Of a DNA stretch of 64,000 nucleotides, positions 10,204 to 57,569 are shown piece after piece. The notes below the pieces were generated by a model. The model saw nothing but the letters and a program-made list of their open reading frames with translations. It did not search any database and was not told where the DNA came from. Each line of letters opens with the position of its first letter. Position 1 is the stretch's first letter. The position numbers and the translations under genes are program-made. Source of the stretch: Armatimonadota bacterium (GTDB lineage Bacteria > Armatimonadota > HRBIN16); the NCBI GenBank assembly GCA_040289885.1, contig PSLZ01000016.1, positions 1,551-65,550 of the forward strand, given 5' to 3'.

Positions 10204-11925
10204 TCAGGACCGTTCACGCGGTTGAGGCATGGCGCGGTCGAAGATGCGCGCATTGGGTACACGCTGAAGAACTTTTCGGAAAGGCTTGTTTGGCCCGATC
10301 AGTATGATCACATAAGTATCCTCTGGAAAGGAAATCTCCGTTGTCAGCCGTTTCAGCAGATTCTCGGTGCGTCTTTGGCTATAATACCCGTACCATGCCA
10401 CGTGGGGAACCACCTCCAGTACATAGAGGGGTTGGTGTACCATGTGCTTTACATGCTTGCGTACCAAATATGCCGTTCGTACCTCGGCGTATGCAGCCAA
10501 CTGAGATCGAATCCCTGCCACCTGTTCGGTGGTTAAATCGTGTGGTTCAAACTGGTCCCGTGGTATCACTTTAGAACGCTCTTCTTGCGCGGCTTCCAGC
10601 TCCGCCAGATACTGCTCTGCCCTCTCGGCGTACTGCTTAGCTTGCTCGTCCAGCCCGTGTTCTCTCGCAAATTGGTACGCAGTGTATAGAGCGTTCAGTG
10701 CGGTCTGATCGTTCGACTGCATCGCGCGGTTCAGGTAGTCAAGCCCTTCGGTGTCACCGTGGTTTAGCAACAACTGCCCTAGGAGATAGTTCGCGCCAGA
10801 GTGAGCCGGAGCCTGCGTTAGCAACTGACGGAGCAAAGGTATAGCCTGCTCCTCGCTTTGCAGTTCCGCCTTCAGCTGAGCCAGTTCCCAGAGTTCCTCC
10901 TCGCAGAGATGGGTTTGTTGTGCTTTGCGTTCTAGATCGGCAATTCGCTGGCGCCCCTGCTCAACATATTGGTAGTACTGCTCCCATTCCGCTTGGACAG
11001 TCTCCCGCCACATTTGGTCCAGCGCACTTGAGAGGTGCCTGTGCAGTTCCCCCAAGAAAAAGCCAGCGGCTGTTTCGGTCAGCGGTTTGTTCAGGGCTAT
11101 CAGCGCTTCAATACATTGCTCGTCGCTCTGCTCGGCAGAAAGAATACCAAGCGCTATCAGACGCTCTCTGAAAGCAGGATGGGTATCATCTACCTCTGTT
11201 TGCATAGCCAAAGCCTGTTTCAATGCGAGTGCTGTCTGCTCTGTCCCGGGGCTTTCGCGCAGGCGTAAACCCGCTTCGGTGTAAGGGGCAACAGTGGGTC
11301 GCGGCTGTTCGTAGGCGAGCTTGGCAATACCATCCCATAGATCACGCCAGTGTCTTTCCTGAACTACCAACCGCACCAGAGCGGATGCATGGTGTAAGCC
11401 GGTCAGGCGTGCGCTAATGCGGTCTGCCTCGTACTCATGCAGGCGGCGTAGGGTGAATGTGTACGCGCTGAAGTAAGGCATATACCATTTCAGGAATATC
11501 CGGAAGATCCATGCTCCTCTATGCTTCCGTTCCTCCAGATGCTGGAGGATCTGTCCCCACGTTCTGTTCAGGCGGTAGATCCAGCTCGTGAAGCGGTTAT
11601 GCTGTCCCTCGAGGTGTCCTAGTTCATGCGCCAGTAATGCACGGAACTCTTCTGGAGATGTCGCCTGCATCAGCGGAAGTCCAACCAGCAAATAGTTCTG
11701 GTACCAACCCAGAACGCCCACCCTCGGAATCGGCGCCACCCCTGCATTGTATTCGGGTGTCACTAGCACGCGGTGAATCGGTGGGGTGTGGAGAGACTGT
11801 TGCAGGTTCTTGATGGTACGGAACAGACGCGGAGCCATCTTTGCTGTTAATTCTATCCCTTCCGGCGGTTCGATGGTTACCCGCATCGCCCGCACAAGGA
11901 TGCCCAAAAAGACCAACAGGGGCAC
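10204..11925 (-). CDS. M48-family zinc metallopeptidase with C-terminal TPR repeats (BepA/YfgC-like). The N-terminus appears frameshifted (see finding).
   Basis: HELGHLEGQH (HExxH) plus downstream E. The C-terminal half consists of TPR-like helical repeats. An upstream 68-codon membrane-anchor ORF (to 12130) lies in another frame. Confidence 0.75.
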   Translation of the reverse strand: MPLLVFLGILVRAMRVTIEPPEGIELTAKMAPRLFRTIKNLQQSLHTPPIHRVLVTPEYNAGVAPIPRVGVLGWYQNYLLVGLPLMQATSPEEFRALLAHELGHLEGQHNRFTSWIYRLNRTWGQILQHLEERKHRGAWIFRIFLKWYMPYFSAYTFTLRRLHEYEADRISARLTGLHHASALVRLVVQERHWRDLWDGIAKLAYEQPRPTVAPYTEAGLRLRESPGTEQTALALKQALAMQTEVDDTHPAFRERLIALGILSAEQSDEQCIEALIALNKPLTETAAGFFLGELHRHLSSALDQMWRETVQAEWEQYYQYVEQGRQRIADLERKAQQTHLCEEELWELAQLKAELQSEEQAIPLLRQLLTQAPAHSGANYLLGQLLLNHGDTEGLDYLNRAMQSNDQTALNALYTAYQFAREHGLDEQAKQYAERAEQYLAELEAAQEERSKVIPRDQFEPHDLTTEQVAGIRSQLAAYAEVRTAYLVRKHVKHMVHQPLYVLEVVPHVAWYGYYSQRRTENLLKRLTTEISFPEDTYVIILIGPNKPFRKVLQRVPNARIFDRAMPQPRERS

Positions 11926-39964: not shown

Positions 39965-41317
39965 TTAGTATGCAAAACTGCGCCCGCTTTCCTGCCTCTG
40001 CGAATCTCTGAGCAGGAGCATCCCCCACGCCACCAGCGCCAGGTCGACCGCGTTTTGCCCCACCTGAGGCAGGTAGTAATAATGTTCGAACGGATGCAGA
40101 AAGCTCATGGGCAAGTAGGTAACACCTTGCCACAGGAGCCACCAGCCGAACCATCGCCGCCAACGCCAGAACGCGACCAGCACGCCCACAAAGGCGAGGT
40201 CGGCAGCCAGCGTGTCCCAGGCGTCTTTGAAGAAGAACAGGTAGGGGTCAAAGCCGGTGGTTTTCCAGTACTGGTAATGCGTGAGCACGGGGACGAGGGT
40301 CTGCAACAGATGTCTTGTTGCGAGCGTGGGAGAGGAGCGTAACTGCTGTTGCTGGTAGCCGCTGATGGTGGGTGGCAAGAGTGTCAACCGCAAAGCGACA
40401 GACGCTAGCGCTATCGCCACGACGATACCCGGGGCTACCCACGCTCGCCACCGCCACTCCCTGCGCACGGCGAAGGCGAGCACGATAACGAGAGGAACCG
40501 CTGTCAGCGGTTGTTCATAGGCACCGCACGCGCCCGCGTCAAGCAGACCCGCCGCCAGCAGATAGCGCGTGCGCCCCGTCTCGCCCCAGTGCAAGAAGCT
40601 TCTGAGGCTCCATACCGTCAGGCAGGTTGCCAGCAGGGCGGTGCGCGAGGGAACCCACACGATGAGACGCTCGAAATCGCTGTGCACCAGCCTGTCCCAG
40701 CCCCAGAAAAACGCCCCTATTCCCAACCCTATCTGCCACCAGTGGGCGCGGAGCCGGCTTTTCCACGCGGGCAGGCTGTGCGGATAGCTCGTGACCAGAA
40801 ACCATACCAGTATCCACCACCACACGGATAGCCTCTGTACGCTGTGCAGGGCGTTTGTTTGCTGAAGGCTTAGGATAACCGCCCCGGCGAGCGCGAACGC
40901 TTGTGCGTGCCTTTCCTCGGTGAGAGGAGGCGATAGCCATCGGTGCGCAAACCCCCTCAAAAGCCCGTAGGAACCCAAAGCGGTTAGCAGTGCCAACAAC
41001 CAGTTGGTCAACCGATAGCCCCAGCCGGTTTCGCCGTACAGCGTGTAGTCTAGCAGAAGGGACAGGCAGGTGGTCGGGCGATAGAAGCCGTTATGCAGAA
41101 ACCAGTCGCCGGTGAACCAGCGCCACCAGCCGGCTATTCCGCCGGTATCGCGCATGGCGTTTAGCATGGCGGCGGTGTCGGTGTCCGTGCGCAAAGGGGC
41201 GTTCGCTACCACCTGCACAAGCCCCGGCAGGTTGGCGAAGAGCACCACCAGCACAGGAAGAGACCTCTGCCAGAAGCGAGGTTGCATGTTTACAATTACT
41301 CGTGACAGTCTGTGCAC
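39965..41317 (-). CDS. Large polytopic membrane protein (approx 12 TM). Possibly a GT-C/PMT-like glycosyltransferase. Hypothetical.
   Basis: 450 aa, Trp-rich and hydrophobic. The family is not confidently recognisable. Confidence 0.4.
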   Translation of the reverse strand: MHRLSRVIVNMQPRFWQRSLPVLVVLFANLPGLVQVVANAPLRTDTDTAAMLNAMRDTGGIAGWWRWFTGDWFLHNGFYRPTTCLSLLLDYTLYGETGWGYRLTNWLLALLTALGSYGLLRGFAHRWLSPPLTEERHAQAFALAGAVILSLQQTNALHSVQRLSVWWWILVWFLVTSYPHSLPAWKSRLRAHWWQIGLGIGAFFWGWDRLVHSDFERLIVWVPSRTALLATCLTVWSLRSFLHWGETGRTRYLLAAGLLDAGACGAYEQPLTAVPLVIVLAFAVRREWRWRAWVAPGIVVAIALASVALRLTLLPPTISGYQQQQLRSSPTLATRHLLQTLVPVLTHYQYWKTTGFDPYLFFFKDAWDTLAADLAFVGVLVAFWRWRRWFGWWLLWQGVTYLPMSFLHPFEHYYYLPQVGQNAVDLALVAWGMLLLRDSQRQESGRSFAY

Positions 41318-41344
41318 TGGGCAAAGTTTTTAGCGTATTTACGT

Positions 41345-41797
41345 TCAGTATACATCCAGTAACTCGTCACGATGGATGCACTCTATTTGGTGAACACGAA
41401 GCTCCTGCATCAAAGGGGCATCTGTAGTAACAACTATCCCATGTCCTGCCGTAGCGAGGCGAGCCAAGTATCTATCATCAGGCTTTATCTGCCAATCCTC
41501 GGCAAGTGGGGGGCAATCGTGCTGGTCGATGGCGAGATATTTTTGACTATTGTTGAGCACGAAGTTACGGCAATAGCGCACAATCTGGGGGGTTCTCACG
41601 TCTCTGAACAGGCAAAGGTTATAGAACTTTTGCTCAAACGCAGAGCCTTTCATAGAAACCAGCATATCGCATTTCTGTACCAGTTGCTCCAGAAAACGGA
41701 ATGCCTGTTGCTGACGCTCAAGCCCATTTTCACCGCCGAGATCGTGCCATAACCACTCGTCAACGATAAACCGTCTCTTGGTGTTCTGCACGTTCAA
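41345..41797 (-). CDS. Small (approx 150 aa) protein overlapping the stop of the upstream ATPase. Putative effector/partner of a two-gene defence-like module.
   Basis: A TTG/GTG start overlaps the ATPase stop (TTGA). Sequence RRFIVDEWLWHDLGGENG...GIVVTTDAPL has acidic PIN/Toprim-like positions but no confident family. GC is visibly lower than the flanks. Confidence 0.5.
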   Translation of the reverse strand: MNVQNTKRRFIVDEWLWHDLGGENGLERQQQAFRFLEQLVQKCDMLVSMKGSAFEQKFYNLCLFRDVRTPQIVRYCRNFVLNNSQKYLAIDQHDCPPLAEDWQIKPDDRYLARLATAGHGIVVTTDAPLMQELRVHQIECIHRDELLDVY

Positions 41798-42960
41798 ATC
41801 CCCAGCATCAGACGGATATCTTCCAGTTCGTCCTCCATGAAGGATGCTAATCCTCCTGTAATCTGTCCCGCTTCGTTGACCTCCTGGGGGCGGCAGACGG
41901 TCTGCTTGTCCATTTTCTCCACAAGGTAAAACCGTACGGAGTGCACCGGCATCTGCTTGCCCGCAATCCGCGCAAGTAGGGCGGACACGAACACCTCGCT
42001 GTGTGTGGTCACGATTACCTGTTTCGCTTCGTCGGCGATAATGGCACATAGGGTTCGGACCAGCCGACGCATTACCGACGGATGCAGGTGTGCCTCTGGC
42101 TCTTCAATCAGCAAGGTGCGTACATGAGGCTGGTGCAGTTTTGCCAGCAGGTATACCAACTGGTTCACACCGAACCCATCGTTGCACAGAAACGACGGCA
42201 AACGAGCCTCTTTGTCGGTACTCTGCAGGTATACGATGGCTGTGCCCGGCGGGGTATAGAGCCTGAAGTCTCTACCAGTGATTCGCTCAAGGTCCGCGGA
42301 TATTTTGGCAGGCATGTAAGGGTCAGTAATAATGCTGGTGGCGACCTCATCTTCCGAGACGGGCATTGCACTGAGCGGTACAGGGTTGTAATAGGGCTTG
42401 AAAAATCCTCTTTTGTGCGGTGCGATGTCTACCCGGCGCAGTGCCTCGGGGATGCTATTGAGCCGATGCGCCAGATCGTGCGCCCGCTCCTGTACCGCTT
42501 CGCCCGCAGTTTCTGCGGTGACACTGGCTGCAATGCCATCCCACTTGATGGAGCAGGTCCCGTCGCCGTACATTTGGGTTACGGTCTGATTGAGCGCGTA
42601 CGGGAAACTCACCTCCAGGTGCAGGTCTATTTCAGAGGACTTCAGGTAAAACGCGCTGGAGTTTTTGCGTAATGTTAACCCGTATTCACCGGCATCCGTG
42701 CCAGCCCGAATATCTACCTCACCGTCTTTGTCATGGGCGAAAACGCATTCCTCAAAGCCAGCGAGGTTCAGGAAGCCGAGATTGAAGAAGTTGTCGACAG
42801 ACTGGTTGGGATTGGCAACGACATTTCGGATGACCAAAGGCGCGTAAAGAACGCTGGACTTGCCGCTGGCGGTCGGTCCATACAGCACAGTCAGCGGCGC
42901 CAGATGAATCTCCTGCTCCTTGATAGAGCGAAAACCCCTAATCCGTAGCGATGTAAGCAT
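41794..42960 (-). CDS. ABC-type 'AAA_15/AAA_21' family ATPase of the kind found in antiphage and abortive-infection systems (PtuA/AriA/GajA/AbiL-ATPase-like).
   Basis: N-terminus MLTSLRIRGFRSIKEQEIHLAPLTVLYGPTASGKSSVLYA (Walker A). C-terminal TLLIEEPEAHLHPSVMRRLV (Walker B/D-loop) and VIVTTHS (H-loop). 388 aa. Confidence 0.75.
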   Translation of the reverse strand: MLTSLRIRGFRSIKEQEIHLAPLTVLYGPTASGKSSVLYAPLVIRNVVANPNQSVDNFFNLGFLNLAGFEECVFAHDKDGEVDIRAGTDAGEYGLTLRKNSSAFYLKSSEIDLHLEVSFPYALNQTVTQMYGDGTCSIKWDGIAASVTAETAGEAVQERAHDLAHRLNSIPEALRRVDIAPHKRGFFKPYYNPVPLSAMPVSEDEVATSIITDPYMPAKISADLERITGRDFRLYTPPGTAIVYLQSTDKEARLPSFLCNDGFGVNQLVYLLAKLHQPHVRTLLIEEPEAHLHPSVMRRLVRTLCAIIADEAKQVIVTTHSEVFVSALLARIAGKQMPVHSVRFYLVEKMDKQTVCRPQEVNEAGQITGGLASFMEDELEDIRLMLGI

Positions 42961-43017
42961 AGCGAGTTCCTCACCGGCAGTATTGTAGAGGATGGGATAT
43001 CCCTTGTCAATGCGGTA

Positions 43018-44826
43018 TCATCCGCGCTTGAAACGCTTCTCCAGCTCCTCGATGCTCAGCACCAGCACCACCGGGCGACCGTGCGGGCACAGGTAGGGGT
43101 TCTCGGTTTCTGCCAGCTCCTGCAGAAGGTGCGTCATTTCGGCGTGGGAGAGCAAGTCGCCCGCTTTGACCGCCATTTTGCACGCGGTGGTGGCGACCAG
43201 CGTTTCGTCGGTGAGGGGGAGGCGTCGCTGGATGCCCAGCTCGGAGATCTCGTCCAGCAGGTCTCGCACGATGGCCTCCACGTTGCGCTGTCCGAGCCAC
43301 GCTGGCACCCCCCGAAGTACCACGCTGTCACTGCCAAACGGCTCTATCACGAACCCCATCGTCTGCAGTTCCTGTTGATGCTCGCCCAGGAGGGTAGCGG
43401 TACGCCGGTCCAGATGAAACACCAGCGGCGTGAGCAGGTGCTGGATCGGGATGGATTGCTTCTGTCGCAGGACGGTGAGCTTCTCATACAGCACCCGCTC
43501 GTGCGCGACATGCTGGTCGATAATCAGTAGTCCCCGCAGGGAAGAGGCGATAATGTAGGTGCGGTTGACCTGTCCCAGCACCTGAAACCCCTCCAACATC
43601 TCTGCGTAGGGGCGCGTCGCGGGGGACACCTCGGCGGGGGGAGCGTAGGCAGGGTCGACGCCCGCGCGACGCAGTAGCTCCGCATGAAGTAGCTCCTGCG
43701 GTGGAGGAGGTGCGGGTTGCCACACGGTTTGTGCCGGCGTGGGGCGTTCGGAGGGTGCAGGGATTTCCAGTCCGCTCTGTAGTCCGGGCAAGGCGGAAGG
43801 GATCATGCCCTGTTGGAGCAGTGCCTGCCGTACGGCGTTCAGCACGGCATGATAGACCTCCCCTTCGTGGGCGAATTTCACCTCGGCTTTGGTGGGATGC
43901 ACGTTCACGTCCACGCTGTGGGGAGGCACGTTCAGAAAGATGGCGGCGATGGGATGCCGTCCCTCCGGGGTGAGGGTGCGGAAGGCGTCGTCCAGCGCAC
44001 GGGAGAGCACGCGGTGGCGCACCAGCCGACGGTTCACGAAGAAGCTCTGCATAGCGCGGGTGGGACGGGTGAGGTGTGGGGGCGAGATGTAGCCGGTGAT
44101 GTGCAGATAGCCCTCCGTGTAGTCGATGGTGCGCAGTTCGCGGGCAACATCGCGTCCGAACACCGCCAGCAGAGCGTGGCGAGGGTCACTGCTACCCTGC
44201 GAGGCAAAAATCTCCTGCCCGTTGTGCACCAGACGAAAAGAGATTTCGGGGAAGGCAAGGGCGAAACGCGTGATCAACTCGGTAATGTGCGAGAGTTCGG
44301 TGGCGGTGCTTTTGAGGAACTTCAGGCGGGCGGGTGTGTTGTAGAAGAGGTCGCGCACGGTGACGGTAGTGCCATCTCGGGCGGCGCACTCTTCCGCCTC
44401 CACTACCTGCCCGTTCTCCACCATCAGGCGCATCCCCGTGTCCAGGTCAGCGCGTTTGGTCACCAGCTCGAATCGGCTGACGGCAGCGATGCTGGGCAGA
44501 GCCTCGCCCCGGAACCCGAGGGTGATGATGGATTGCAGGTCGTCGGCGTCGCGAATCTTGGAGGTGGCGTGTCGCTGGATGCTGAGGAGGGCATCGGCAG
44601 GGCTCATTCCCTCCCCGTCGTCTACCACGCGGAGCAGGCGTTTACCGCCCTGTTCCACCTCCACGAGGATGGTGCGTGCCCCGGCGTCGATGCTGTTTTC
44701 TACCAGCTCTTTGACCACCGACGCCGGGCGCTCCACCACCTCGCCGGCGGCAATCCGGTTGACCGTGTGCTCTTCCAGCAGGTGAATCCGTGTTGGATAT
44801 GTGTGTACCGTTTCAGGCAGGCTCAC
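43018..44826 (-). CDS. mutL: DNA mismatch repair protein MutL.
   Basis: N-terminal NRIAAGEVVERPASVVKELVENSIDAG GHKL ATPase, and a C-terminal dimerisation/endonuclease domain. Confidence 0.9.
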   Translation of the reverse strand: MSLPETVHTYPTRIHLLEEHTVNRIAAGEVVERPASVVKELVENSIDAGARTILVEVEQGGKRLLRVVDDGEGMSPADALLSIQRHATSKIRDADDLQSIITLGFRGEALPSIAAVSRFELVTKRADLDTGMRLMVENGQVVEAEECAARDGTTVTVRDLFYNTPARLKFLKSTATELSHITELITRFALAFPEISFRLVHNGQEIFASQGSSDPRHALLAVFGRDVARELRTIDYTEGYLHITGYISPPHLTRPTRAMQSFFVNRRLVRHRVLSRALDDAFRTLTPEGRHPIAAIFLNVPPHSVDVNVHPTKAEVKFAHEGEVYHAVLNAVRQALLQQGMIPSALPGLQSGLEIPAPSERPTPAQTVWQPAPPPPQELLHAELLRRAGVDPAYAPPAEVSPATRPYAEMLEGFQVLGQVNRTYIIASSLRGLLIIDQHVAHERVLYEKLTVLRQKQSIPIQHLLTPLVFHLDRRTATLLGEHQQELQTMGFVIEPFGSDSVVLRGVPAWLGQRNVEAIVRDLLDEISELGIQRRLPLTDETLVATTACKMAVKAGDLLSHAEMTHLLQELAETENPYLCPHGRPVVLVLSIEELEKRFKRG

Positions 44827-45479
44827 TTCTCGGGGACCTTTGGTCCAGGGGGTATCGGCGGTCTGCCAGACGGCGTTTTGAGCATCTTGGTGTACCGCTC
44901 GATGCGCTCCTGGTACATTTTGACCTGCGGGTCGGTATCGGGCTTGCCCTGTTTCTTCAGTTTTGCCAACTGCTCTTTGGCTATTTCGATCTGCTTGGCG
45001 ATGATTTGCGGGGGCATAGTCATGCCTGGTGGCATGCCGGGTGGAGCCTGGAAGGCTTCAGGGTTCTCTTTGCGCCATCGCTCCATTGCCGCTTTCTGCC
45101 ATGCCCTATAGACGGCATCCCGTTTTTTGATCACCTCCGCGAGCTGCTTGACCAGCTCCAGCTTTTGCGCGTCCAATCGTTTGCGCTCTGCTGGGTCCTG
45201 TGTGCTGAAGCGTTTCCTGTCCAGCTCTACCGACCGGTTGATCAGGGCATCTCGCTGTTTCTCCAGCTGATGCAGTTGTGCAGCCAGAGCCTTCTCCCGC
45301 GGGCTGGGGTTGGGCTTCTTCTTGGGCAGCGGTGCCCCCTTTGGCAGGTTCAGCATCTCCTCCTTGATGATCGCCGGCTTGGGCACAGGCTTAGGGGTTT
45401 GCGTCTTTTCCTGTGCAAAGGCGATGCTGGTCGCCAGGAAGACTGCGGTCACAGCAACCGCAATCAAAGATTTCACCAT
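44823..45479 (-). CDS. Hypothetical periplasmic coiled-coil protein (Lys/Pro-rich), translationally coupled to mutL.
   Basis: AGGAGG SD before ATG 45479. Signal peptide MVKSLIAVAVTAVFLATSIAFAQ. Helical charged repeats. Confidence 0.55.
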   Translation of the reverse strand: MVKSLIAVAVTAVFLATSIAFAQEKTQTPKPVPKPAIIKEEMLNLPKGAPLPKKKPNPSPREKALAAQLHQLEKQRDALINRSVELDRKRFSTQDPAERKRLDAQKLELVKQLAEVIKKRDAVYRAWQKAAMERWRKENPEAFQAPPGMPPGMTMPPQIIAKQIEIAKEQLAKLKKQGKPDTDPQVKMYQERIERYTKMLKTPSGRPPIPPGPKVPEK

Positions 45480-45624
45480 CGAATCGACCTCCTGTAGCAG
45501 GACTGTATTCACCTTCATTATATACGAAACGGCGTGGCAGAGTTATCCATTCTTCTTCGGCAAAAACACCAGAACCGCATCTTGGGATATAATGAGAGCG
45601 GTAGAACTTGCGGATGGAGCGTTT

Positions 45625-56371: not shown

Positions 56372-56446
56372 TGGAGCGGGAGACGGGACTCGAACCCGCG
56401 ACATCCAGCTTGGGAAGCTGGCGTTCTTCCACTGAACTACTCCCGC
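56372..56446 (-). tRNA. tRNA-Gly (anticodon CCC).
   Basis: Reverse complement GCGGGAGTAGTTCAGTGGAAGAACGCCAGCTTCCCAAGCTGGATGTCGCGGGTTCGAGTCCCGTCTCCCGCTCCA. Anticodon loop UUCCCAA. T-tract after the 3' end. Confidence 0.9.
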
Positions 56447-56556: not shown

Positions 56557-56585
56557 TTGACACCCGATGCGAGTTAGGGTTAAAT
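56557..56585 (+). promoter_or_regulatory. Near-consensus sigma-70 promoter (TTGACA-17-TTAAAT) upstream of the decayed regulator.
   Basis: ttgaca at 56557-56562, 17-nt spacer, ttaaat at 56580-56585. Confidence 0.45.
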
Positions 56586-56599
56586 GGACGAACAGATAC

Positions 56600-56830
56600 T
56601 CTACGGGCAAACCTATTGTACGTACACTGAAGGAGAACATTCTCAGCGGCAGTTACCCGCCCGGCCCGCAGTTGCCAACTGAGGCAATGGACGAGACGGT
56701 TCGTGGTCAACCGGGTGACGGTACGCAACGCCCTGGCACTGATTCAGCGCGAAGGGCGGTGGTGCGCATTCCCGCCAGAGGCACTTTTGTGCGACGCAAT
56801 GAACCACTCTCTTCCCCACCAAAGTCTCTA
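56600..56830 (+). pseudogene. Remnant of a GntR-family (AraR-like?) transcriptional regulator. Its HTH is split across frames by at least two indels.
   Basis: Frame A reads VRTLKENILSGSYPPGPQLPTEA. Frame B reads RRFVVNRVTVRNALALIQREGRW. Frame A resumes with VRIPARGTFV. Together these reconstruct a canonical GntR winged HTH. There is no intact ORF longer than about 70 codons. Confidence 0.45.
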
Positions 56831-57083
56831 CGCATGGGCGCGGAAGCCGTCCGCCTCCTGATACGTCGGCTTCGGAACCCAGACCTTTCCGCCCAGCATG
56901 TCGTTTTTTACCAGTTGACCTGTATGTGCGCTCTACGACGGTACCTGCCACCGCTGTGGTGCACTAGATCCCGATGCGCTATAATATGCCAAGGAAGGTT
57001 CGCCCCCCAGGGGGGAACCTTGTGGGAGGCGTACGACCGTTCATGCGGGAGGAAAAGAAATACCCGCGACCGATCAGCGGGCG

Positions 57084-57569
57084 ATGCTGTTGGCAATTGC
57101 GGTCAGCGTAGTGGCGTCGGTATGGAGCACTCTGGTTTTAGCCTGTCGCTACGGCGGAGCAAACCTGAACAGCTGGTTCTTCATCGACGGTCCCCAGTTC
57201 CCCTACAAGGGGGCGGCAGGCAAGATCATCAATCCCTCGGACCCTAGCATCACCGGCTGGTTGCTCACAGGCGGAGGGGCAGGGGTCATGGGTTTCCTGA
57301 GCGCGATGCGCCAACGGTTTGTGGGATGGCCTTTCCATCCTGTCGGATTCTGCGTCGGGAGCACGTGGGTCGTGGGCGCGCTGTGGCTGACCTGCCTTGT
57401 CGCGAGGTTGGTGAAGTTGCTCATCCTACGCTTTGGGGGACTGCGCGGGTTTCGGACGTCCCTCCCCTTCTTCCTGGGATTGATTGTCGGACAGTACACG
57501 TGCAACGGTTTCTGGCTGGTGATGGACTACTTCAGCAGCGCAAAGGGCAATCGGATATTCTGGATCTGA
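57084..57569 (+). CDS. Small hypothetical membrane protein (4 TM, 161 aa).
   Basis: ATG 57084 is the only in-frame start after the stop at 56982. Hydrophobic segments. No family assigned. Confidence 0.4.
   Translation: MLLAIAVSVVASVWSTLVLACRYGGANLNSWFFIDGPQFPYKGAAGKIINPSDPSITGWLLTGGGAGVMGFLSAMRQRFVGWPFHPVGFCVGSTWVVGALWLTCLVARLVKLLILRFGGLRGFRTSLPFFLGLIVGQYTCNGFWLVMDYFSSAKGNRIFWI

Follow-up and report, generated by a model that had tools for sequence, protein, structure and literature searches.

The locus and the inserted cassette

We analysed a stretch of 64,000 nucleotides (nt) from an Armatimonadota genome (contig PSLZ01000016.1 of GenBank assembly GCA_040289885.1, positions 1,551 to 65,550), referred to below as the window. 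On its minus strand, inserted between mutL and a gene for a hydrophobic protein, the window carries two adjacent genes, encoding an OLD-type ATP-binding cassette (ABC) ATPase and a small stand-alone protein with a predicted PIN fold, which together probably form a mobile immune module. The gene order is mutL, the pair, the 450-residue membrane-type protein, ubiE and ispB. The features of the locus are as follows:

41794..42960 (-): ATPase gene, 388 residues, OLD-type ABC ATPase similar to NsnB and to the ATPase of Hma-embedded candidate 3 (HEC-03); proposed sensor/regulator
41345..41791 (-): partner gene, 148 residues from GTG at 41791, predicted stand-alone PIN-fold protein; proposed RNase effector
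41345..41797 (-): partner gene from its alternative start, TTG at 41797, 150 residues
41318..43017 (-): inserted cassette of about 1.7 kb, from the mutL stop codon to the start of the membrane-protein gene, delimited by insertions/deletions in relatives and by a trough in guanine plus cytosine (GC) content
42982..43010 (-): sigma-70-type promoter, TTGACA-17 nt-TACAAT, in the 57-bp spacer past the mutL stop
43018..44826 (-): mutL, upstream flank, outside the system (Pfam MutL_C 2.5e-42, DNA_mis_repair 9.7e-38)
39965..41317 (-): gene for a 450-residue hydrophobic protein, presumed to be a membrane protein, downstream flank, outside the system

The pair was recognised as a discrete insertion by comparing relatives that have it with relatives that do not. 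Locus L018, which is occupied, differs from the empty locus L057 by a 2061-bp segment containing the pair, while the flanks of the two are 98.5% identical at the nucleotide level. Likewise, L062 (occupied) and L061 (empty) differ by a 1722-bp insertion/deletion, with flanks that are 91–94% identical. At the empty sites of these relatives mutL directly adjoins the membrane-protein gene, which was the synteny check proposed in the first-pass annotation of the window, made from the sequence alone. That annotation had suggested horizontal acquisition, and the discrete insertion and the empty sites bear this out; however, a recent acquisition in the window genome is rejected. The same site, in the order mutL, pair, membrane protein, ubiE, ispB, is occupied in Armatimonadota relatives whose ATPases are 87%, 60% and 59% identical to that in the window, and because syntenic copies have diverged to 59–60% identity we conclude that the insertion is not recent here. 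The 450-residue protein, which has no match in Pfam or NCBIfam, lies beside ubiE-ispB both in relatives with the cassette and in relatives without it.

The left junction of the cassette lies immediately past the mutL stop codon, and the right junction is located in the opening codons of the membrane-protein gene (L061:5950-5990 compared with L062:5930-5990, corresponding to approximately 41290-41345 in the window). The N-terminus of the membrane protein reads MPVFALLSSLRTLSRRLQT... in the occupied L062 and MSTLSRRLQT... in the empty L061. Insertion therefore gives the neighbouring gene a new start codon and a new N-terminus. No direct repeats or target-site duplications are evident at the junctions inspected (L018/L057 and L062/L061), and there is no integrase or transposase gene near the cassette.

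The promoter in the window (43010..42982) agrees with the consensus at 11 of 12 positions. The occupied L018 and L062 have a TTGACA / TA(C/G)AAT pair at the same place, which the empty L057 and L061 lack. The cassette thus brings a promoter of its own, and the pair is gained or lost as a unit.

The low GC content that the first-pass annotation had noticed was confirmed. It is 49.0% for the partner gene (z = -4.7) and 55.1% for the ATPase gene (z = -2.4), relative to 61.4 +/- 2.6% for the 43 open reading frames (ORFs) of at least 150 residues in the window, and is ordinary in both flanking genes (mutL 63.6%, membrane-type gene 61.2%). Across the family, the pair lies below its flanks in GC content in 28 of 30 loci, by a mean of 5.8 points (Wilcoxon p = 6e-6).

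There are two candidate start codons for the partner. If translation starts from the TTG at 41797, which shares the letters TTGA with the ATPase stop codon, the product is the 150-residue protein annotated by NCBI; this is the overlapping arrangement that the first-pass annotation described. The GTG at 41791 is 2 nt past the ATPase stop and lines up with an ATG start in relatives; the 148-residue partner, without overlap, is therefore likelier.

Some other features were noted at the insertion sites and elsewhere in the window. In L018 the inserted segment runs approximately 410 bp past the stop codon of the partner gene (L018:4521-4932), and in this part there are several repeats that are rich in GC and hairpin-like, of which GGTCGTGCTCCGTCGCGACC is an example. 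The same repeat also occurs once at the empty L057 site (L057:5682-5800). The repeats may resemble repetitive extragenic palindromes or miniature inverted-repeat transposable elements, and may be relevant to gain or loss of the cassette. Upstream of mutL, and overlapping its start by 4 nt, is a gene (44823-45518, -) for a 231-residue protein rich in Lys, Pro and Glu, which has no Pfam match, is kept in all relatives examined at 61–75% identity, and is apparently co-transcribed with mutL. The lowest GC content among the large ORFs of the window (55.05%, marginally under that of the ATPase gene) belongs to a 573-residue M48-family peptidase (10204-11925, -), and the lowest GC content at third codon positions (0.56) to a 226-residue ORF without a Pfam match (56567..57247, +). 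The latter follows a tRNA gene (56375..56446, -) and may be another small foreign insertion.

Distribution and genomic context of the pair

The two genes were found to be tightly, and translationally, coupled and always to travel together. Nine distinct contexts were collected using the ATPase as the query, and in all of them the ATPase is followed by an ORF of 148–157 residues that has no Pfam match. A profile of the partner family was then scanned, independently of the ATPase search, against 185,579 species genomes. This gave 39 loci, and in all 39 the ATPase gene is directly upstream on the same strand, so the pairing seen in the window is conserved in other genomes. The phyla represented include Armatimonadota, Acidobacteriota, WOR-3, Planctomycetota, Nitrospirota, Bacteroidota and Chloroflexota, together with Verrucomicrobiota, Desulfobacterota, Clostridia and Gammaproteobacteria. 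The distance from the ATPase stop codon to the partner start ranges from -18 to +24 nt (32 loci), and the divergences of the ATPase and of the partner from the window pair are correlated with each other (r = 0.92).

We also carried out a HMMER search of 1.84 billion cluster representatives, which found 569 homologues of the partner as representatives clustered at 50%, of which 409 have E values of 1e-10 or lower. All 150 of the homologues listed are stand-alone proteins of 93–179 residues, with none fused to another domain. No recurrent third gene was found among the 123 nearest-neighbour ORFs of 35 loci; the neighbour families that occur more than twice are components of type IIG and type I restriction-modification (RM) systems and ResIII, and an AAA_15/AAA_21 ATPase with DUF4276 occurs twice. 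Two further loci contain what may be decayed copies. In one of these (L050:7659-7976) the best-aligning segment covers just the C-terminal third of the ATPase, and in the other (L055:5306-5377) an intact ATPase is followed by a partner of which the first 24 residues alone are recognisable.

In other phyla the pair occurs in unrelated surroundings, never with mutL, and it is often found among RM and other defence genes. Examples are two loci from WOR-3 metagenome-assembled genomes (MAGs), L009 and L010:130-3840, in which a short prokaryotic Argonaute (Piwi) and SIR2 pair and a DUF2851 gene are directly upstream; in L010 a type IIG RM enzyme of the MmeI type is located further upstream of the pair. 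This neighbourhood is a compact defence island. A type I RM operon surrounds the pair in L013:1-9194, where the order is hsdM, an MNT/HepT toxin-antitoxin pair, hsdS, the ATPase and PIN genes, an AAA_14/DUF4143 gene, and hsdR. The HEC systems were found by “guilt by embedding”, which is the same situation. At another locus the pair is beside an Eco57I/MmeI-type enzyme, and at yet another it is beside a HEPN gene, a second AAA_15 ATPase, and a PLD-SNF2 protein.

The ATPase and its PIN-fold partner

The 388-residue protein is an intact ABC ATPase of the OLD-type/AAA_15 group associated with defence. Pfam identifies it as AAA_15 (E 3.3e-22, 80.1 bits against a cut-off of 32.1) and AAA_21 (E 2.4e-20, 74.3 bits against a cut-off of 27), in agreement with the first-pass annotation. 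An alignment of 60 homologues shows invariant Walker A (G28-x4-G33-K34-S35), Walker B/D-loop (E286-E287-P288-E289-x-H291-L-H-P294), and H-loop (T319-H320-S321-E322) motifs. The signature region has the form GxG (N260-D-G262-F-G264-V-N266-Q267). The sequence R184-G-F is also invariant in the family, and on our reading of the alignment R184 may stand in for the Q-loop glutamine.

Comparison with the PADLOC models placed the ATPase in the defence-associated group that the first-pass annotation had proposed. The best match is to NsnB of the Menshen system (8.9e-31, residues 1–381 against positions 1–338 of the 345 in the model), followed by the HEC-03 ATPase model PDLC04148, named HEC-03B (E 1.2e-26), AriA (5e-25), PDC-M55A (6e-24) and GajA (1e-18). 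By sequence, the nearest relatives of known structure are the OLD nuclease 6p74 (6.8e-11) and PtuA, and these matches are limited to the surroundings of the Walker B and H-loop motifs. DUF3696 has no match on the window ATPase at E <= 1, and among 60 family members 7 match it weakly (best E 0.0011).

The AlphaFold2 model of the ATPase (predicted local distance difference test score, pLDDT, 92.1) has an ABC head and a β-rich Insert-1, with a tail (residues 342–385) made up of a short β-hairpin and a helix. Its neighbours in Foldseek are the heads of SMC, Rad50, PtuA and OLD, with template modelling (TM) scores of approximately 0.5. A housekeeping identity of the SMC, RecF or RecN kind was considered and rejected: the match spans just the N-terminal 40 residues, the NCBIfam scores are far below the cut-offs (23 against 172 bits for RecF and 15 against 408 bits for RecN), and the model has no coiled coil.

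The partner is not recognised by sequence comparison. The window protein has no match in Pfam, PADLOC, NCBIfam or PHROGs. When 116 homologues were scanned singly, sub-threshold matches to PIN_4 and PIN_9 were obtained in 6–7 members each, and there was no PADLOC match of PIN type. A profile search of the sequences in the PDB gave a single sub-threshold match, which is to the PIN domain 1o4w (E 0.74). The structure was predicted using AlphaFold2 from an alignment of 116 sequences, with a mean pLDDT of 92.5 and a predicted TM score of 0.86. Foldseek gave a probability of 1.00 for the best matches, with TM scores of 0.5–0.6, and the best structural neighbours include VapC43, VapC21, the Caulobacter and Shigella VapC proteins, and FitB. 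Two structure-comparison methods are concordant in identifying the model as PIN, and we conclude that the predicted fold of the partner is that of a PIN domain, with three layers (α/β/α) and a parallel sheet. The first-pass annotation had suggested a PIN- or Toprim-like protein without HNH or DUF4435 motifs. The PIN alternative is the one that agrees with the model, and Pfam, PADLOC and NCBIfam contain no HNH or DUF4435 match. Toprim, HNH and HEPN identities were all rejected, there being no library matches to any of them and the predicted fold being PIN.

Conserved residues in the partner were counted over the 116 homologues, and are listed here with their positions relative to the predicted secondary structure:

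E12: 114/116, end of β1
D17: 114/116, helix after β1
S50: 106/116, with Thr in a further 7, after β2
K55: 116/116, helix after β2
D106: 115/116, N-terminus of the helix after β3
T122-T123-D124: D124 in 116/116, after β4
R141: 115/116, after β5
D142: 107/116, after β5

The canonical PIN active site consists of four acidic residues (D-E-D-D) that are clustered in space. Judged relative to secondary structure, three of these four positions are kept in the partner family: D11/E12, D106 and D124 occupy PIN acidic positions and are 98–100% conserved. Judged by its conservation, the partner looks more like an active enzyme than like an adaptor.

Proposed function and relationship to known systems

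The pair is a distant and uncatalogued relative of a known kind of system, composed of an ABC ATPase and a PIN protein, of which HEC-03 is the exemplar. HEC-03, from Pseudomonas cichorii, has a 461-residue DUF3696-containing ABC ATPase followed by an overlapping gene for a 157-residue VapC-like PIN protein; it protects E. coli from phages, and both genes are needed (Payne et al., bioRxiv 10.1101/2024.01.29.577857). Both systems thus have two genes that overlap or abut, with the ABC ATPase first and a small stand-alone PIN protein second. Using the HEC-03 sequences in the supplement of Payne et al., hhalign aligned the profile of the window ATPase family with the P. cichorii ATPase at a probability of 98.9% (E 1.8e-17, 26% identity over 328 columns). 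The two ATPases are homologous over their whole length and have in common the motifs NF(K/R)S at the N-terminus, GxxxSGKSS, NLGGF, GFGV(N/S)Q, (E/Q)PE.HLHP, and SHSE. The window ATPase is shorter (388 residues compared with 461) and lacks a clear DUF3696 tail. HEC-03 has been tested with phages, whereas the family described here is known from sequence, and a PADLOC call of HEC-03 requires both genes. The first-pass annotation considered the pair to be a novel or under-described immune system. The family is indeed uncatalogued, but the combination of ABC ATPase and PIN protein has already been validated in HEC-03.

We therefore propose that the pair is probably a self-contained, mobile two-gene immune module of the abortive-infection type, in which the ATPase would sense infection and license a PIN RNase. 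We infer this function from the homology of the ATPase to that of HEC-03, and from analogy to WonAB, PARIS and the NsnB-NsnC models. The strict linkage of the two genes, the lack of a recurrent third gene, the surroundings rich in defence genes at a number of loci, the mobility and the separate promoter also count in its favour. By this analogy, the PIN protein would sit on the C-terminal extensions of ATPase dimers or tetramers, which would keep it inactive or dependent on the ATPase. The ATPase would sense a cue derived from the phage, and ATP binding or hydrolysis would then activate or release the nuclease. Cleavage of tRNA, rRNA or mRNA by the PIN protein could halt translation and abort the infection.

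Several observations weigh against this proposal. No homologue was found among the IMG/VR viral contigs, PLSDB plasmids or INPHARED phages, and every member of the family comes from an uncultured MAG. Most of the other loci have housekeeping rather than defence genes as their nearest neighbours. The partner is not significantly similar to the HEC-03 PIN protein (hhalign E 0.68), although this alignment does bring the PDD/PSD and TTD/DTD motifs into register. Finally, the second canonical PIN acid, in the helix after β2, is variable in the partner family (position 53, Q36/E24/A14). We therefore regard nuclease activity as plausible rather than proven.

The partner shares its predicted fold with the VapC toxins, to which it is 7–15% identical; it differs from PIN proteins of the VapC type in that the second acidic residue is not conserved. 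The pair could be a toxin-antitoxin or addiction module, in which the PIN protein would be a VapC-like toxin and the ATPase would neutralise it in place of VapB, the result being selfish stabilisation with no dedicated sensing of phage. The VapC-like fold, the tightly coupled two-gene operon, and the patchy presence and absence with many solitary insertions among housekeeping genes would all suit such a module, and the Pfam description of AAA_21 reads “putative AbiEii toxin, Type IV TA system” (TA, toxin-antitoxin). However, VapBC has a small VapB antitoxin upstream, whereas the window family has an ABC ATPase there at all 39 loci. The gene order, and an upstream enzyme of 388 residues with conserved motifs for ATP hydrolysis, are unlike the small DNA-binding VapB. 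Simple sequestration has been excluded experimentally for the related system WonAB (PMC12137116), and defence by HEC-03 needed both of its genes (bioRxiv 10.1101/2024.01.29.577857). In addition, the family was not found on the plasmids of PLSDB, where addiction modules are common. We consider an addiction module to be an unlikely description of the pair.

There is evident kinship between the pair and the NsnB-NsnC core of Menshen. Menshen consists of NsnABC (Millman et al., 2022; Li et al., 2025, PMC12065111). NsnA is a sensor with ParB and DUF262 domains; NsnB is an ABC ATPase in which GxG replaces SGG and Arg replaces the Q-loop Gln, with a DUF3696 tail; and NsnC joins an inactive, PIN-like domain at its N-terminus to a toxin domain at its C-terminus, the PIN-like domain docking on the C-terminal tail of NsnB in AlphaFold3 models (PMC12065111). 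The window ATPase is like NsnB in its best library match, its GxG signature, and its invariant R184, read as the Q-loop position. The partner and NsnC both begin with a PIN-fold domain and are encoded downstream of the ATPase. These features, together with the lack of conservation at the second PIN acid, would be consistent with the pair being a reduced or remnant Menshen, in which the PIN protein would be a non-catalytic adaptor like the inactive PIN domain (inPIN) of NsnC, with the sensor and the toxic effector encoded elsewhere or lost. The best full-length PADLOC match of the ATPase is after all NsnB, and the NsnC N-terminal domains are modelled to bind it. The differences are nevertheless considerable. 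There is no NsnA-type ParB-DUF262 gene beside the pair in the window, where the upstream gene is mutL, or in the nine ATPase-seeded contexts, and DUF262 is not among the recurrent families listed for the 123 neighbouring ORFs of 35 loci. The partner is a PIN domain alone, without the C-terminal toxin domain of NsnC, and the same is true of the 150 partners listed. The PIN-like domains of NsnC lack the acidic residues, whereas E12, D17, D106, D124 and D142 are 92–100% conserved in the partner family, unlike inPINs. Walker B reads EE in the window ATPase and EN in NsnB. A reduced Menshen is consequently a very improbable reading of the pair.

Least probable of all is a housekeeping accessory of the mutL or ubiE-ispB neighbourhood, such as an ATPase-nuclease for RNA processing or DNA repair: the pair is on the mutL strand, occupies the same syntenic site in several related lineages with ATPases down to 59–60% identity, and has an ATPase head resembling those of SMC and Rad50, but this idea is largely refuted by relatives with 98.5% identical flanks that lack the pair, and it is at odds with the unrelated contexts in other phyla, never with mutL, with the separate promoter and deviant GC content, and with RecF and RecN scores far below the cut-offs in an ATPase without a coiled coil.

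Returning to the two-gene immune module, its small size (388 and 148 residues) would make it suitable as a minimal model for the gating of a PIN RNase by an ATPase, and its presence or absence in nearly identical strains constitutes a natural experiment. The effector is not recognised by PADLOC v2, Pfam, NCBIfam or PHROGs, and the system has therefore been missed in censuses of defence systems.

The relationship with Menshen may also be read in the opposite direction, as a tentative and rather doubtful suggestion, namely that the family and HEC-03 represent a free-standing and catalytically active form of ATPase-PIN system that Menshen later elaborated. At the outset a PIN RNase would have been under the direct control of an OLD-type ABC ATPase. 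The PIN domain of Menshen would then have lost its active site and become a docking adaptor (inPIN) for toxin domains that could be swapped in, and the ParB-DUF262 sensor would have been added. If this is true, the pair would be a minimal two-protein model for how an NsnB-type ATPase switches on a PIN-fold partner, and the immune RNases of uncultured phyla would gain a PIN family that has gone unrecognised, marked by K55/R141 and by a changed second acidic position.

Of the other known systems, WonAB provides a mechanistic precedent, and the likeness of the pair to WonAB, PD-T4-4 and the “OLD-ABC + novel REase” (restriction endonuclease) operons is drawn here from the published description (PMC12137116). 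WonAB comprises an OLD-ABC ATPase, with K34, R182, E300 and H333, and a small nuclease located on the dimerised C-terminal extension; the nuclease is toxic only when the ATPase is active, and translation is arrested as a result (PMC12137116). Both ATPases are compact and OLD-type, with K34 and an Arg near 182–184, and both are followed by a small nuclease or putative nuclease. The effectors differ, being a PD-(D/E)xK fold in WonAB and a predicted PIN fold in the window.

PARIS (AriAB), Septu (PtuAB), Gabija (GajAB) and OLD belong to the same ABC ATPase superfamily and follow the same logic, in which an ATPase controls a nuclease. Their ATPases match that of the window mostly just in its C-terminal part, around Walker B and the H-loop. 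As effectors they have Toprim (AriB, GajA and OLD) or HNH (PtuB) proteins, and the partner in the window matches neither.

The pair adds no new category to biology. ABC ATPases that act with a small nuclease, as in PARIS, Septu, WonAB, HEC-01 to HEC-03 and the core of Menshen, are becoming recognised as one of the main designs of bacterial immunity, and a 2026 survey of BREX describes the repeated pairing of OLD-ABC ATPases with nucleases of the HNH, REase or PIN type (PMC12839542). The value of the family is largely practical. Through it the branch composed of an ATPase and a PIN protein is widened to approximately 570 sequence clusters in almost wholly uncultured phyla, among them Armatimonadota, Acidobacteriota, WOR-3, Planctomycetota, Nitrospirota and Chloroflexota.

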